Assembly: GCA_011364975.1 (NCBI GenBank)
Contig: RDOE01000001.1
Coordinates: 32,001 to 96,000, forward strand
Direction: 5' to 3'
Source of the DNA: Promethearchaeota archaeon
GTDB lineage: Archaea; Asgardarchaeota; Lokiarchaeia; Sigyniarchaeales; SOKP01
DNA length: 64,000 nt
Positions 6,495-12,054 of this stretch are shown here, piece by piece. The notes below the pieces were generated by a model, which had not been told where the DNA came from, did not search any database, and saw only the letters and a list, made by a program, of their open reading frames with translations. A program made the translations under genes and the position numbers. How positions within the stretch are numbered: position 1 is the stretch's first letter; each line of letters begins with the position of its first letter.

Positions 6495-6676
6495 AATTTC
6501 TCACTCGAAAGATTTTTTGAATGGGATATAAAAAATGGCTATTAAGTTGAAAATACAATATATCTAATTAAATTTTATTGGAGTCCAATTATTATTGTAT
6601 TTAATTCGAGTATTTTTTAAATTTTGAATATTTTTTTAATTAATTACAAATAAAATTGAAGTATTGTAAGAATTAT

Positions 6677-8119
6677 ATGGTTAATATTATTGAAAAAATT
6701 CCCGTACATATTGGGTTGTTTGGTCATATTGACAGTGGAAAGACAGCCATTGCAGCTGTCCTAAGTGAATTTATTTCTACTGCAGGAATTGATGCTCATC
6801 CTCAGAGTAAGGAAAGAGGAATAACCATAGATTTAGGATTTACCAGCTTTATTTTAGGAGATTATTTAATCACTTTAGTTGATGGTCCAGGTCATTCTGA
6901 TTTGATTAAGATAAGCGCATCTTCAGTTGAAATTATTGATTGTGCACTATTAGTAATTGATATTACTAAAGGCCCTCAAGTTCAGACTGGTGAACACTTA
7001 ATTATGATTGAATCTCTAAATATCCAGAATATTATTGTTGTTTTAAATAAAATTGACCTTTTTAAGGGAAATATTGGTAAAGAAATTGAAAAAATACGAA
7101 AATTTTTTGATTCAACATCATTTGGAGCTAATATTCCAATTTATGCTGTTTCTGCGAAATTAAAAACTGGATTTGAAGAGTTAAAGGAAGGAATTTTGCA
7201 TAAAATTCAATCCTTAGAGATTGAAAGGAATACTGAAGGAAATCTAATAATCCCTATCGATCATCATTTTTCTATTAAAGGTAGAGGATCAGTGGTGACT
7301 GGGACAATTTTAAATGGTAGAATAGCAATAAATCAAATCCTTCATATATTACCCATTGATACTTCGGGTAGGGTTAAATCTATTCAAATTTTTCATAATA
7401 ATGTCCAAAATGCTGAAGCTGGAGATAGAGTGGGAATAAATTTTAAGGGGATCGATTTAAAAAGTGTTTATAGAGGTTGTTATGCGACAAACAATAAACA
7501 AGCATTTGATTATGCAAATATTTTAGATTTAGAAATTAAAAAGAATAAATTATTCAAGCATGAAACGCGTTTCGGAACTCAAGTTCATGTAACCATTGGT
7601 ATGGTTACTTCAGTAGGTTATGTTTTTCCTTACTATAAATTAAATCAAAAAAGAGTACAGATTGATGTAATTGAAGGAAAAAGTAATTTTAATGCTTTCT
7701 TATGGTTAAATGAAAAGGTATTAGTTAATAAAGTAAAAAATTTAATGCTAATTAGTCGATTAGATTTACCTCCAACAACTCTAAGGATATTAGGAGCTGC
7801 AACAATTCTAAATGTTCTTAAAGACCCCCCCACACTATATAAATTTAAAATTAAAAAAGGAATCATTACGAATCCCCAACATTCACAAGGAATTATTTGT
7901 TCTGGTTTAGCAAATAGCCTCGAAGGAGCAAAAAAAATTATAGGTAGAGCTTTAGAAACCCCTTACACGAAAGTAATAAGCCCATTTGGTACTAAAGGTG
8001 CAGTAATTGTCGGGGTAAAGGATAATATAAGCAAAATAGAGAAGGGTGATTTTGTTGTATTAAAAGATCTAAGGAGTTTTAAATTAAATCCAAAAAAATA
8101 TTTAAAAGGTCAAAGTTAA
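6677..8119 (+). CDS. selB: Selenocysteine-specific elongation factor (aSelB/eEFSec)
   Basis: GHIDSGKT, STAGIDAHPQSKERGITIDLGF, DGPGH, NKID, IDHHFSIKGRGSVVTG, C-terminal domain IV with PFGTKG; ATG at 6677 preferred to TTG at 6656. Confidence 0.93.
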   Translation: MVNIIEKIPVHIGLFGHIDSGKTAIAAVLSEFISTAGIDAHPQSKERGITIDLGFTSFILGDYLITLVDGPGHSDLIKISASSVEIIDCALLVIDITKGPQVQTGEHLIMIESLNIQNIIVVLNKIDLFKGNIGKEIEKIRKFFDSTSFGANIPIYAVSAKLKTGFEELKEGILHKIQSLEIERNTEGNLIIPIDHHFSIKGRGSVVTGTILNGRIAINQILHILPIDTSGRVKSIQIFHNNVQNAEAGDRVGINFKGIDLKSVYRGCYATNNKQAFDYANILDLEIKKNKLFKHETRFGTQVHVTIGMVTSVGYVFPYYKLNQKRVQIDVIEGKSNFNAFLWLNEKVLVNKVKNLMLISRLDLPPTTLRILGAATILNVLKDPPTLYKFKIKKGIITNPQHSQGIICSGLANSLEGAKKIIGRALETPYTKVISPFGTKGAVIVGVKDNISKIEKGDFVVLKDLRSFKLNPKKYLKGQS

Positions 8120-8589: not shown

Positions 8590-8976
8590 TTATGCAACTC
8601 TTTCCCATTTTACCAGATCACCATCATTTAAAGAATATACTGCGGCTCCAACTCCAGGACTGTAATTATTTACTAAATAAATCCAACTACCTCCTACCCC
8701 ATCTATAATTCTAACTATTATTCCCCATCCAAAATCCTCGTATTCAATATCACACCACTTGTTAAGTGCATCAAAAGCAGTAGTCTTTCCTCCTTCAAGA
8801 GTAAAATTGTATTGTTCTTTTATTGTTCCGTTGTTATAATCTACGATTAATGAAATATTTTCCACAATAGACAGAGTTTGGGGTCGTTCATAGAGAGAAA
8901 AGTTAAACATAAGTAAAATTGTAAAAAAGGAAAACCCAATTATAGCTAGTAAGAAAAATTTAACCGATTTTTTCAT
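8590..8976 (-). CDS. Membrane-anchored DUF4430 (transcobalamin C-terminal-like) protein
   Basis: N-terminal TM helix; TAFDAL...GIIVRIIDGV...WIYLVN...GAAVYSLNDGDLVKW. Confidence 0.8.
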   Translation of the reverse strand: MKKSVKFFLLAIIGFSFFTILLMFNFSLYERPQTLSIVENISLIVDYNNGTIKEQYNFTLEGGKTTAFDALNKWCDIEYEDFGWGIIVRIIDGVGGSWIYLVNNYSPGVGAAVYSLNDGDLVKWERVA

Positions 8977-9000: not shown

Positions 9001-10407
9001 TTATAAATCTGATTTGATTCTTCTCTTTAGGTTCATGATAATAAATGCGATTGAAACTCCAAAGAAAGCCAATATAACTATCATTGGAAATGAATCTATT
9101 TGATTATCTGGTTGCTCTGGTGGATTTTCAATTTGAGGTGGCGTAAATTCTTCAATACTCATCTCTAAAATATATGGATTAATATAAGTTGAAGCCCATA
9201 ATAATAATCCAGTTCTCTTTTCATAGATTAAATGAGTACTTTGTTCAAAACCTCCTATTTGATCATAATAGAATCCTATCGTTAATTCAGTCTCCTTGAT
9301 AGAAACTTCTCCTGGGTTAGCAGAATTCAATGCTATTTCGTTTAACAAGGTAATGTTATCTATTATAGGGCTTAAAAACCCAGTCTGAAAGCCTAAGAAT
9401 CCTATACCCATTTGTAATGCAGCTTCTCGGTTTGATATATTTGTGAATGAGATTATTGGTCCAATTGGTCCAAAATAACCCTTATAAAAAATTTCGATAT
9501 CAAACCAAGCTCTCATGATATCAAGTGAAAAAGCATCTAGCGACCAATTAGGTTCATTAACATCTCTTGGATAGAAACCTGTGAAGTTGATGGTTACAAA
9601 GCCGCCAGGATTAGTAGTCCATGTATCTATATAATTAAAGTCCCAGTCATACCAAAAAGCAGATCCTTCGAATTTTAAGATATCATAGACATAAAGAGTA
9701 TCTAAGTCTAAAGAATAATTAGTTAATGACATCTCCAGTTTATATCCAAGTGGATTAGTAATTGGAATCATTTCGGTATACGCCCAAATAAGTAATCCGG
9801 TTGCTTTATCATAAATCAATGTTGTGTTTTGAGCACCAGAATCTTGCCGAAAATCAAATGATATAAAATTGTATGTTTCTTCAACACTGACAGTCCCAGG
9901 CATAAATCCTGAATCTTGCGCTAAAGCTAATTCCTTTAATTCAGTGAAATTATTTAATGCAATAAGGAATCCAGATTGAAAAGCGTTGTACCCCAGGAGC
10001 ATATTAAAAGCCGCTTCTCCATTTGAAACATTATAGAATGTGTGATTTGATATTAACGTACCGAAGTCATTTTTAACAAACTCTAAGTTCATATAAGGCA
10101 TAGGACTACCAAATAGATTAAATACGTCGTTAGAATCTTTATCATAAAAGCCAGTGAAGTTTACAATTATTTGCCCTCCAAAATTAGTTGAAAGATTATA
10201 TTTTGATGCCCAGTCAAATCCAATCCAGTTCAAATCTCCTCCAAATTGAGTGACATTATATACATACGTAGTGTTTAGATTTAGATTCTGAGAATAATTA
10301 GCTGGAATTTCGTGATCTGCTCTGGAAGTCGTTATAACAATGAAATCGATGCTTGTAATAAGCAATAAAGAACTGAATATTATGGAAATAACTTTGTTTT
10401 TCCTCAT
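9001..10407 (-). CDS. Secreted surface protein with two tandem ~190-aa domains and a Loki-CTERM/PGF-like C-terminal anchor
   Basis: Signal peptide from MRKNKVISII (ATG 10407); repeated YVY..GG...NFTGFY..SNxEAA..FQxGFL..LIYxKxTGLLxWA..LEMS; Pro-rich linker, IDSF, TM helix, KRRIK tail; many N-x-S/T sites. Confidence 0.8.
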   Translation of the reverse strand: MRKNKVISIIFSSLLLITSIDFIVITTSRADHEIPANYSQNLNLNTTYVYNVTQFGGDLNWIGFDWASKYNLSTNFGGQIIVNFTGFYDKDSNDVFNLFGSPMPYMNLEFVKNDFGTLISNHTFYNVSNGEAAFNMLLGYNAFQSGFLIALNNFTELKELALAQDSGFMPGTVSVEETYNFISFDFRQDSGAQNTTLIYDKATGLLIWAYTEMIPITNPLGYKLEMSLTNYSLDLDTLYVYDILKFEGSAFWYDWDFNYIDTWTTNPGGFVTINFTGFYPRDVNEPNWSLDAFSLDIMRAWFDIEIFYKGYFGPIGPIISFTNISNREAALQMGIGFLGFQTGFLSPIIDNITLLNEIALNSANPGEVSIKETELTIGFYYDQIGGFEQSTHLIYEKRTGLLLWASTYINPYILEMSIEEFTPPQIENPPEQPDNQIDSFPMIVILAFFGVSIAFIIMNLKRRIKSDL

Positions 10408-10439
10408 ATTAAAATTACCTATCATACTTCTTGTGTTTA

Positions 10440-10493
10440 TTAAGTTACAAAATTTAATCTCTCCTAACATTTAAAATTAGCCAAATTACCCTA
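10440..10493 (-). promoter_or_regulatory. Left copy of a 54-bp inverted repeat (putative operator plus TATA)
   Basis: Minus strand TAGGGTAATTTGGCTAATTTTAAAT-N10-ATTAAAT-N4-TAACTTAA; 45/54 identical to 10816-10869. Confidence 0.75.
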
Positions 10494-10815
10494 TATATAA
10501 TATTTATCGATCTTAGGATTATTAAGGAATATACATACCTTATTTTCATAAATCTTACTATTTTCTGTAGGGTGGTTTCTATATTTAAGTAATTTAAGAC
10601 TAATTTTGTTTAATTGTTGAATTTGTATTTAGTTGATATAAAAGAATATATTAATAATTATTTTTGTTAAAAATTAATAAAGTATTATTTCTTTATATGG
10701 AAGAAATCTAAAGGTTTATTCTTGATTTTTTATATCCACCCTAATAAGATAGGATTGCTTTTTCACATAGAGAGCCAATTATATTGATAATTTTATGATA
10801 TCGAATTTTTCTCAC

Positions 10816-10869
10816 TAGGGTAATTTGGCTAGTTTTAAATTGAAGTGGATATTAAATATTATAACTTAA
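10816..10869 (+). promoter_or_regulatory. Right copy of a 54-bp inverted repeat (putative operator plus TATA)
   Basis: TAGGGTAATTTGGCTAGTTTTAAAT-N10-ATTAAAT-N4-TAACTTAA; core 24/25 identical to the left copy. Confidence 0.75.
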
Positions 10870-10901
10870 GCAGCAATAAAAACAAAAAATTTGAGTAAAT
10901 T

Positions 10902-11519
10902 GTGATTACAGAGGAAACTATAAAAAAAGATAATATTGAACATTTGAATCATTCGGTATGGTTAAGAAAGCAATCTGTTCGATTTGCGTTGATTGCAACT
11001 TTTTCAGCGCTGTCTGTAGTCTTAGGTTATATGTTAGCTTATATCCCTAATATCGAAATTTTTACTCTAATGATATTTCTTTCTGGCTTTATTATGGGAA
11101 AAAGGGATGGAATGATTATAGGTTTGTTAAGCTCCGCAATTTTCACATTTTTAAATCCTTTAGGCCCGTCTCCATTACCTCTTTTTGCATACCAATTAGC
11201 TCATTATTCTTTAACAGGATTATCTGGTGCCCTGACAAGAAGTTATCTGAATAATAAGGATTTTTTTAAGCCTAAGGAAGATTTATATTTACTCAAGATT
11301 ATTATTATTTTTGGTATAACAGGTGGACTACTCACTTTTACATATGATATTTTAAGTACCTTTTTTGGAGGATTAATTGTTTCTCCTAAAATAGAATACT
11401 TCATTATAACATATTTTTCTGGAATAATATTTACAAGTATTCATTTAATCGGAAATATTCTAGGTTTTATATTCATTTTACCAGGATTAATCCAACTAGT
11501 ATTAAGACTTTTAGACTAA
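10902..11519 (+). CDS. ECF transporter S-component (CbrT-like, probably corrinoid)
   Basis: ALIATFSAL (AxxxA motif), IPNIE, about 6 TM helices, C-terminal HLIGN. Confidence 0.8.
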   Translation: MITEETIKKDNIEHLNHSVWLRKQSVRFALIATFSALSVVLGYMLAYIPNIEIFTLMIFLSGFIMGKRDGMIIGLLSSAIFTFLNPLGPSPLPLFAYQLAHYSLTGLSGALTRSYLNNKDFFKPKEDLYLLKIIIIFGITGGLLTFTYDILSTFFGGLIVSPKIEYFIITYFSGIIFTSIHLIGNILGFIFILPGLIQLVLRLLD

Positions 11520-11565
11520 TATAGAATACTATAAAAAAAGAGTGATTATGTTCAAATTTATTCAT

Positions 11566-12054
11566 CTATTCATTCTGTGTTAGTAAGGTAACCTTTCCAC
11601 CAACAGCTTCTATTTTTTCGATTGCTTGTTTAGATGCCTTATTTACAGAGAGATTAATTTTTTTATTAATTTCTCCTCGGCCTAAAATTTTTTGAACATT
11701 AATATCTTTTAAATTAATTGTAAAAGTATTGCCTGATTTTGTTGCGATATTATCTTGTACCAATAGTTCTATTTTTAAATCTAAATCTTTCACATTTAAA
11801 GTATTTACTTGATGTATACGTTTCATATCCTGAGGTCTATTGAAACCCTTGAAACCTAATTTCCAGTTAGGATCCGGGAATCCTAATTCTTTTTGCTTAT
11901 AATAATAAGATTTCATACTTTTATTCCATTGGGTAGTGGTTCCCCTACCAGCCCGTTGACCAGTTTTTCGGTGTTGGCCTACACGTCCATAGCCAATTGT
12001 GCGAGTTCCTCGCTTTTTTCGTATTTTTTTAGCAAATTTTCTCAATTTTAACAC
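11566..12054 (-). CDS. rpl15: 50S ribosomal protein uL15
   Basis: RGTRTIGYGRVGQHRK, KILGRG, ASKQAIEKIEAVGG. Confidence 0.95.
   Translation of the reverse strand: MLKLRKFAKKIRKKRGTRTIGYGRVGQHRKTGQRAGRGTTTQWNKSMKSYYYKQKELGFPDPNWKLGFKGFNRPQDMKRIHQVNTLNVKDLDLKIELLVQDNIATKSGNTFTINLKDINVQKILGRGEINKKINLSVNKASKQAIEKIEAVGGKVTLLTQNE

Follow-up and report, generated by a model that had tools for sequence, protein, structure and literature searches.

Palindromic candidate operators and an inverted promoter repeat at a putative B12-uptake locus of an Asgard archaeon

The effect of the archaeal TrmB/TrmBL1, SurR, NrpR, MDR1 and Lrp-type regulators depends on where they bind: a site over the transcription factor B recognition element (BRE) and the TATA box represses, and a site upstream of the BRE activates. 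Archaeal activators have their sites some 30 nt upstream of the TATA box, counted from the centre of the site, and in a fixed phase; repressor sites lie over the BRE position. Corrinoid-controlled DNA binding is a property of the light-responsive CarH/LitR proteins, which are MerR-type fusions with a B12-binding domain. To our knowledge, no archaeal B12-responsive transcription factor has been characterised, and we are aware of almost nothing on gene-specific regulation in Asgard archaea. The present work deals with a 64-kb stretch of DNA of a Promethearchaeota archaeon (assembly GCA_011364975.1, contig RDOE01000001.1, positions 32,001 to 96,000), called here the window, which is part of a 3.74-Mb genome (G000) of 200 contigs, 99% complete and with 30.6% GC. 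The element under study occupies the 494-nt intergenic region (IGR) between two divergent transcription units, a left operon for a predicted surface protein and a DUF4430 protein, and a right gene for a putative S component of an energy-coupling factor (ECF) transporter. This IGR contains a long inverted repeat whose best-conserved part includes a 16-bp dyad, and palindromes of the same kind are found in the orthologous IGRs of related genomes.

The elements of the IGR are listed below, with positions counted from the first letter of the window.

10440-10525, minus strand: left arm of the inverted repeat (repeat search), read as one copy of a duplicated operator-promoter module
10784-10869, plus strand: right arm of the inverted repeat (repeat search), read as the other copy of that module
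10478-10493, minus strand: left candidate operator, the same 16-mer as the right copy and identical to it
10816-10831, plus strand: right candidate operator TAGGGTAATTTGGCTA, a 16-bp imperfect dyad and a variant of TAGG-N8-CCTA
10469-10476, minus strand: putative TATA-like box TTTTAAAT, separated from the left operator by one base
10833-10840, plus strand: putative TATA-like box TTTTAAAT, as read from the sequence, one base after the right operator
10440-10458, minus strand: mirror boxes TAACTTAA (10440-10447) and ATTAAAT (10452-10458), identical between the arms
10851-10869, plus strand: ATTAAAT (10851-10857) and TAACTTAA (10862-10869), both identical between the arms
10526-10783, no strand: spacer that separates the arms; neither a gene nor a structured RNA was detected in it, and it contains a small inner repeat pair

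The arms are 86 nt long each, 73% complementary (63/86) and separated by 258 nt. When the left half of the IGR is aligned with the reverse complement of its right half, the score is 31.5, against 11.0 +/- 1.5 for shuffled sequences, and none of 200 shuffles reaches it (z = 13.4). The likeness is unevenly distributed. Mismatches spare the cores (10469-10493 on the minus strand and 10816-10840 on the plus strand), where 1 position of 25 differs, as opposed to 22 of 61 in the rest of the arms (24/25 versus 39/61 matches; Fisher p = 0.0024). A preliminary description of this DNA, made from its letters alone, had reported the 24/25 identity of the cores, the 45/54 identity of the 54-mers of the two arms, the N10-ATTAAAT-N4-TAACTTAA layout and a distance of 62 positions between the end of each core and its start codon (CAT/ATG 10407 and GTG 10902), all of which were reproduced by a direct recount. 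It had also pointed to an inner inverted pair and to a very A/T-rich centre, with less success. The pair, TAGGGTGG (10568-10575) and CCACCCTA (10736-10743), is present and its axis is 1 bp off that of the outer arms, but it is within chance, since 458 of 5000 shuffles show a mirrored run of at least 8 within a shift of +/-3. The central 322 nt are only marginally mirror-like (63/161 identity versus 53.3 +/- 5.5; 95 of 2000 shuffles reach this value). The centre has indeed only 20.5% GC, but this is ordinary for intergenic DNA in a genome whose upstream regions are 75-80% A+T throughout. The spacer contains no open reading frame (ORF) longer than 31 aa, has no Rfam match and gives an RNA fold z of -0.69; nothing similar to it was detected in 41 other genomes of the genus except short A/T-rich pieces.

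Each arm, followed outward, is made of the operator, one base, TTTTAAAT, 10 nt, ATTAAAT, 4 nt, TAACTTAA, 32 nt and the start codon. Because TTTTAAAT starts one base past the operator, the BRE position falls inside the operator. The distance from the TATA box to the transcription start is usually about 26 nt in archaeal promoters, and with this spacing a start site is predicted near 10862-10866 on the plus strand. Should TTTTAAAT be the TATA box, ATTAAAT would occupy roughly -12 to -6, TAACTTAA would coincide with the start site, and the leader would be about 36-40 nt long. We read ATTAAAT accordingly as a putative proximal element and TAACTTAA as the probable initiation region, or else ATTAAAT as a second TATA candidate. 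The placement with TTTTAAAT as the TATA box agrees with the genome-wide pattern in G000, in which TATA-like hexamers peak at 51-80 nt upstream of start codons and Shine-Dalgarno-like motifs are found at -20 to -11.

The locus was then compared with its counterparts in genomes of the same genus, hereafter the relatives (G-numbers; their loci are numbered L). A homolog of the S component is encoded in 24/24 sampled genomes of the genus, and the order large protein (minus), IGR, S component (plus) and uL15 (minus) is kept in 16 of 19 relatives' loci. The orthologous IGRs measure only 128-190 nt in 7 of 16 relatives' loci. They fail to align as DNA, yet each holds a 16-bp palindrome, TAGG-N8-CCTA. 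In the 20 orthologous loci of the genus, G000 counted in, 14 exact and 18 one-mismatch copies occur in 6,261 intergenic positions, as compared with 0 and 9 in 61,746 flanking positions. At least one site is present in every one of the 20 loci, and two in many; the site is also found in all eight metagenome loci holding both genes, and in a genome from another family of the same taxonomic order, a site of 16.4 bits precedes the homolog by 71 nt. The preliminary description had named absence of the motif from orthologous promoters, combined with absence from the rest of the genome, as an outcome that would speak against a regulatory site; it is present in all of the orthologous promoters sampled. 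The genus matrix, which was built without G000, is symmetric (T-A-G-G-W-W-A-n-n-T-W-W-C-C-T-A). The G000 dyad, of which the 3.74-Mb genome has only the two exact copies, differs from TAGG-N8-CCTA by one mismatch in the outer tetramers, GCTA replacing CCTA, and the variant right halves GCTA, TCTA and ACTA are also seen at relatives' copies of the locus. In the two closest relatives, the S-proximal site TTGGTTAACTTACCCAA has a GGGTAA-TT core in common with the G000 dyad, on the other strand. The weak palindrome TAG-N3-AATT-N3-CTA proposed earlier was thus rightly taken as dyad-symmetric, but what the relatives conserve is TAGG-N8-CCTA. By its dyad symmetry, its conservation in orthologous promoters and its fixed position relative to the core promoter, the 16-mer qualifies, on sequence grounds, as a candidate operator.

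The repeat is not an artefact of assembly. Region 10000-11300 is found in one piece in each of three runs, which come from three different studies; the contigs differ from it by 3-6 substitutions and show neither indels nor joints. Four substitutions fall in the IGR across the three independent assemblies, none of them in either core and none in the operator 16-mer, and a single strain variant, at 10868, lies within the right-arm boxes. In run X2, a 121-nt contig carries a 59-nt segment of the left arm (10436-10494) with 3 differences and unrelated flanks, one of which ends in a start codon much nearer the arm; this contig may come from a related organism with the same promoter module.

These data bear on two alternatives raised in the preliminary description, neither of which found support. 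The inverted repeats bound a short non-coding segment, as they would in an invertible DNA switch where a recombinase acting on the arms flips the 258-322-nt middle. However, only one orientation, without joints, is seen in the contigs of all three studies (contigs do drop rare variants), the five neighbouring genes that were scanned include no recombinase, and the relatives' IGRs of 128-190 nt lack such a segment. Moreover, the promoters face outward from the arms, so that flipping the middle would change nothing, and a switch of this kind is scarcely conceivable. An A/T-rich unwinding element between inverted initiator boxes would instead make the IGR a replication origin, and both the layout, which is like that of archaeal origins, and the 13.8% GC of the innermost 160 nt are in its favour. 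This is nevertheless extremely improbable: the A/T content of the spacer is ordinary for the genome, three Orc1/Cdc6-type genes (Cdc6_C matches) lie on other contigs (C124, C52 and C50), and no skew turn is centred here, even if this last test is weak because the window profile is dominated by gene strand. The boxes are, in addition, kept promoter-proximal in IGRs of 128-190 nt, which leave no room for a conserved origin or for an invertible cassette, and they also occur before unrelated B12 genes.

When 30 other genomes of the genus were searched for exact matches to TAGGWWANNTWWCCTA, with the reversed pattern as a control, 33 sites were obtained. Twelve of them, in 10 genomes, are at this same ECF S-component/DUF4430 locus. 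Another eight are located about 100 nt upstream of genes for corrinoid proteins of about 207 aa (B12-binding_2 + B12-binding), twice in G003 and once each in G004, G007, G015, G017, G024 and G042, and several of these genes adjoin genes for URO-D-family methyltransferases. A ninth site, in G012, has the corrinoid-type promoter layout, its probable gene being truncated by the contig end. Four more sites belong to BtuF-like Peripla_BP_2 genes of G005 and G009, two genomes that are close kin: each gene is immediately preceded by a tandem pair whose sites are 7 nt apart, and a CbiZ-domain gene lies just upstream. Altogether, 25 of the 33 sites are at promoters of corrinoid-linked genes, among several thousand genes per genome, and several linked targets within one genome are seen in relatives such as G003, G007 and G042.

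No cobalamin riboswitch (RF00174) was detected in 9500-12000 at E <= 1, nor anywhere in the whole genome by a search whose control gave a match in 7 of 14 genomes, and the element is not a member of that riboswitch family. The preliminary description had inferred a B12/cobalt regulon without a riboswitch and had suggested a genome-wide motif scan. The link to B12 and the lack of a riboswitch are borne out, the former at the genus level, where the scan recovered corrinoid-protein, BtuF-like/CbiZ and DUF4430/ECF-S promoters of relatives; a regulon in G000 itself is not apparent, and nothing ties the site to cobalt. Two kinds of candidate second sites in G000 were examined and set aside: the two matches to the 16-mer with 2 mismatches (C86 and C165) are in GC-richer, apparently coding sequence, and the best matrix hit (C128:2613) is within the first codons of an ORF. 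The relatives' BtuF-like, CbiZ and ArsR proteins have no tblastn match in G000, which is also without close orthologs of the relatives' regulated corrinoid operon. With no other site or target there, the system of G000 would amount to local control of one divergent gene pair.

The same operator and the same co-regulation could also serve a different signal, namely a methylated or methoxylated substrate or another methyltransferase cue, B12 uptake genes being co-expressed solely to meet the large cofactor demand of the methyltransferase systems. In methanogens, methyltransferase operons are known to have regulators specific for the substrate. Here, 9 of the 21 sites outside the locus front corrinoid-protein genes, several with URO-D-family methyltransferases, and one cluster adjoins a LigB-type aromatic ring-opening enzyme. 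On the other hand, G000 keeps both sites in spite of lacking close orthologs of the regulated corrinoid operon, and the BtuF/CbiZ and DUF4430/ECF-S targets belong to uptake or salvage and not to catabolism. Gene content is what the choice between the two signals is drawn from, and a substrate signal is considered unlikely, without being negligible. As a separate observation, the operons found behind the palindrome at L056, L057, L061 and L041 combine a corrinoid protein with URO-D-family methyltransferases, in one case beside the LigB-type enzyme, which hints that they may demethylate methoxylated aromatics.

The position of the site relative to the core promoter differs between target classes. 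At 7 of the 9 corrinoid-protein promoters, the distance from the end of the site to a TATA-like heptamer, mostly TTTAAAT and preceded by purines, is exactly 22 nt; at the other two it is 21 and 24 nt. All BtuF-like sites and most S-proximal sites, that of G000 among them, have an A/T box within 0-4 nt. The G000 site covers the BRE position and touches the TATA-like box, so that repression fits better than activation. A transcription-factor site next to BRE/TATA, as first proposed, therefore stands in so far as a conserved dyad adjoins a TATA-like box; the "activator position" given to it does not, because the dyad abuts this box and overlaps the BRE, and activator-type spacing is seen only at the relatives' corrinoid operons.

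The explanation favoured here is that the two outward-facing promoters are inverted copies of one module, which would comprise the 16-bp dyad operator, the TATA-like box, the A/T proximal box, the initiation region and a leader of about 36-40 nt. The left copy would drive the operon of the surface protein and the transcobalamin-like DUF4430 protein, and the right copy the gene of the CbrT-like ECF S component. A dimeric transcription factor would bind the dyad and most likely block transcription factor B (TFB) and the TATA-binding protein (TBP), repressing both units together. In the relatives, the same kind of site would control other corrinoid genes, and a corrinoid-responsive factor would shut off uptake and turn on corrinoid-dependent enzymes when B12 is available, doing the job of the bacterial cobalamin riboswitch. 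Taken as a whole, with its duplicated operator-promoter module, dimeric factor, repression and B12-linked control, this explanation is regarded as reasonably probable.

Such a system would resemble those of TrmB/TrmBL1, SurR, NrpR, MDR1 and the Lrp-type regulators by its short dyad for a dimeric factor, its motif-defined regulon and its position-dependent action, and would differ from them by its Asgard host and by its targets in corrinoid uptake and use. TAGG-N8-CCTA is not known to match the motif of any named archaeal regulator, and a literature search for such an archaeal B12 signal found nothing. With the bacterial cobalamin riboswitch regulon (RF00174), the sites share the target classes, that is BtuF-type, ECF-CbrT-type and salvage genes. 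The riboswitch is RNA-based, whereas the element described here is a palindrome of the kind expected in double-stranded DNA, at a fixed distance from the TATA box and on either strand. Rodionov and colleagues reportedly proposed, in J Biol Chem in 2003, a 'CBL-box' as candidate DNA signal of a hypothetical archaeal B12 regulator. The idea of a protein and a DNA site in place of a riboswitch is common to both cases; that study predates the Asgard genomes.

Several observations weigh against this explanation. Across the genus, TAGGWWANNTWWCCTA sites are no commoner than those of the reversed control (33 versus 29), and in the absence of a bulk excess the case rests on where the sites are and not on their number. 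TAGG-N8-CCTA was picked by eye on the same IGRs that were later used for counting, so that the IGR count is not an independent test, and the genomes are kin, so that site counts overstate independence. Eight of the 33 sites are elsewhere, within ORFs or before genes without a B12 link, among them a CoA-transferase gene, a polymerase small-subunit-like gene, a Roadblock/ThiF pair and genes without known function. The G000 dyad scores only about 9 bits on the genus matrix and is off consensus at 3 positions. If ATTAAAT is the TATA box, the site would lie 19 nt upstream of it, which is nearer to an activator-type placement. The motif is absent elsewhere in G000, where several linked targets are consequently not observed. 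Matrix hits of at least 12 bits number 80 in this genome versus 119 in the reversed-sequence control, strict TAGG-N8-CCTA occurs 11 times, less often than neighbouring spacings, and the five corrinoid-protein paralogs of G000 all lack an upstream site. No regulator gene is conserved beside the sites among the neighbours inspected in relatives, and those B12-binding-domain ORFs of G000 that were inspected, part of a total of nine, are enzymes or corrinoid proteins. Lastly, a profile of 15 orthologs of the S component hits only PDB 6fnp_A, and weakly (E = 0.0057, 19.7 bits).

The length of the mirror symmetry calls for an explanation of its own. The operator accounts for 16 bp and the boxes for some more, so that 86 nt at 73% complementarity points to a common descent of the arms. 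In the closest relatives (75-77% protein identity), the IGRs measure 177-181 nt and contain two unlike sites, the one proximal to the large protein being only about 21 nt from the start codon. Compared with these short IGRs and their unlike sites, G000 seems to have acquired its left promoter by copying the S-type module in inverted orientation, and its IGR looks as if it had grown by about 300 nt. A systematic test of 25 IGRs gave significant long inverted repeats in four (G000, L009, L070 and L074). In the metagenome locus L070 (800-2452), arms of about 400 nt with 81-86% identity flank an inserted gene for a leucine-rich-repeat (LRR) protein and contain a pseudo-copy of the 3' end of that gene; the presence of this gene fragment shows that duplication, and not convergent constraint, produced the arms there. 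In L074 (509-2405), also from a metagenome, each operator copy is the exact reverse complement of the other and part of a 27-nt perfect inverted repeat. The 1.8 kb enclosed by this repeat holds two ORFs, of 232 and 150 aa, that match no Pfam family, and L019 looks like the uninterrupted form of this locus. In our reading, G000 represents an earlier case of such an event, and its long mirror would have been left behind when the module was duplicated in inverted orientation: selection would have kept the operator and the core-promoter boxes alike while the rest decayed. That such duplications arise, for instance, by template switching at the palindrome is speculation.

Inverted duplications evidently occur at this IGR without any need of function, as the gene fragment in the L070 arms illustrates, and the G000 repeat might accordingly be a neutral relic in which promoter DNA was copied by an inverted segmental duplication and the likeness of the cores reflects recency. 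The departure of the G000 dyad from consensus at 3 positions, its score of about 9 bits and the failure to find another target in this genome go in the same direction. A relic is nevertheless judged improbable, considering that decay has been uneven (1/25 in the core versus 22/61 elsewhere), that the conserved blocks are the operator and core-promoter boxes also kept by relatives, that the cores are unchanged in three strains, and that both genes need a promoter when nothing else in the 494-nt IGR is conserved. Even less probable is a miniature inverted-repeat transposable element (MITE) with the arms as its terminal repeats. The 430-bp unit does have inverted repeats ending in TTAAGTTA / TAACTTAA, and relatives carry cargo DNA between similar repeats. 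Against this, no further copy of the IGR or its arms was found in the genome by blastn-short or in the 41 other genomes of the genus, which is at odds with a multicopy element; the best-conserved part is internal and not terminal, no transposase is present, and the relatives' cargo ORFs match no transposase family.

The genes flanking the IGR are as follows.

10902-11519, plus strand: putative ECF-type S component, a membrane protein of 205 aa with a weak likeness to CbrT; right-hand gene
9001-10407, minus strand: 468-aa protein, predicted to be surface-anchored, with two beta-rich domains; first gene of the left operon
8590-8976, minus strand: DUF4430 protein of 128 aa with a modelled transcobalamin beta-domain fold; second gene of the left operon

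The S component matches PF12822 with E = 1.9e-5 and 25.2 bits, below the cut-off of 30.7, and TIGR04518 with 18.9 bits for a cut-off of 60. Where G000 has its GTG start codon (10902), the two closest relatives have TTG, and three EcfT/CbiQ genes are found elsewhere in G000. The structure recovered by the ortholog profile, 6FNP, is that of the ECF-CbrT vitamin B12 transporter of Lactobacillus delbrueckii (Santos et al. 2018). Both would be solitary S components of about 180-205 aa, the match being weak (E = 0.0057), and the gene described here differs by the partners with which it is paired, a surface protein and a DUF4430 protein of transcobalamin-like type.

The 468-aa protein is modelled (pLDDT 85.3) with a helix at each terminus and two beta-rich domains. 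This model found no convincing PDB match, with TM-scores <=0.3 and LolA-like half-barrels for single domains only. The longest left ORF would encode 489 aa from ATG 10470 and runs over the left promoter boxes; the orthologs, of 466-471 aa, align from residue 1 at ATG 10407, which was for this reason taken as the start, and the 489-aa public gene calls are probably over-extended. Many of its Asgard homologs are longer, about 590 aa, and carry DUF4430 in the same polypeptide. In the window, DUF4430 is carried by the separate 128-aa protein, which matches PF14478 with E = 1.1e-5 and 26.3 bits, above the cut-off of 23.8. Its model (pLDDT 85.8) gave 18 PDB matches at E <= 0.001 with Foldseek; among the matches listed, all are transcobalamin, haptocorrin or intrinsic factor save one Ruminococcus DUF4430-type protein, and the target-normalised TM-score to the isolated beta domain is 0.70. 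Profile and model agree in placing the protein in this predicted family and fold. Together, the surface protein, the transcobalamin-like protein and the ECF S component likely constitute a candidate B12-capture system. The window also includes a Roadblock/LC7 gene and, at 937-2313 and 6656-8119, an archaeal SelB (Pfam aSelB_III) near an ORF resembling, by eye, O-phosphoseryl-tRNA(Sec) selenium transferase; the organism probably uses selenocysteine.

The neighbours of the relatives' sites were inspected for the factor. They encode a nucleotidyltransferase/HepT pair, a TFIIS-type protein, a cupin, the LigB-type enzyme, URO-D methyltransferases, CbiZ and proteins without a family. A 185-aa protein with a weak C-terminal winged-helix match is encoded upstream of one relative's site and has a homolog in G000. 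An ArsR gene beside one corrinoid operon was rejected as the factor, having a different palindrome of its own and a TAGG box that faces the other way. At L023 (1290-1651, in G012), an ArsR-family gene diverges from the corrinoid-protein operon, and a 12-bp palindrome ACTTATATAAGT occurs near the ArsR start and again downstream of the TATA box of the operon, which suggests that a second regulator acts on this corrinoid promoter. G000 has nine B12-binding-domain ORFs in spite of the lack of detected BtuF or CbiZ homologs; unlike CarH/LitR, none of those inspected is a MerR-type fusion. A 264-aa B12-binding-domain ORF on C84 was likewise discarded as the factor, since it sits, by eye, in a putative aminomutase gene pair. 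This pair (C84:1022-3392), whose smaller product has the B12-binding domain, resembles a lysine-5,6-aminomutase-type enzyme by eye and by NCBIfam names.

We rate these results as signs of a B12-linked regulon with a new operator motif in Asgard archaea, the promoter being duplicated locally. The locus offers a defined operator, two geometries that predict opposite effects, a short target list and a candidate B12-capture system, and the operator could be used as bait for the factor from cultured relatives. More broadly, and only tentatively, it is possible that corrinoids are sensed by a DNA-binding protein in place of a riboswitch, both in this genus and in one neighbouring family or more. A single dimeric factor acting on TAGG-N8-CCTA would then repress uptake where its site lies over BRE/TATA and activate methyltransferase operons where it lies 22 nt upstream, and the operator may also be the starting point of inverted duplications, through which both sides of a divergent promoter that has been interrupted come to have a copy.

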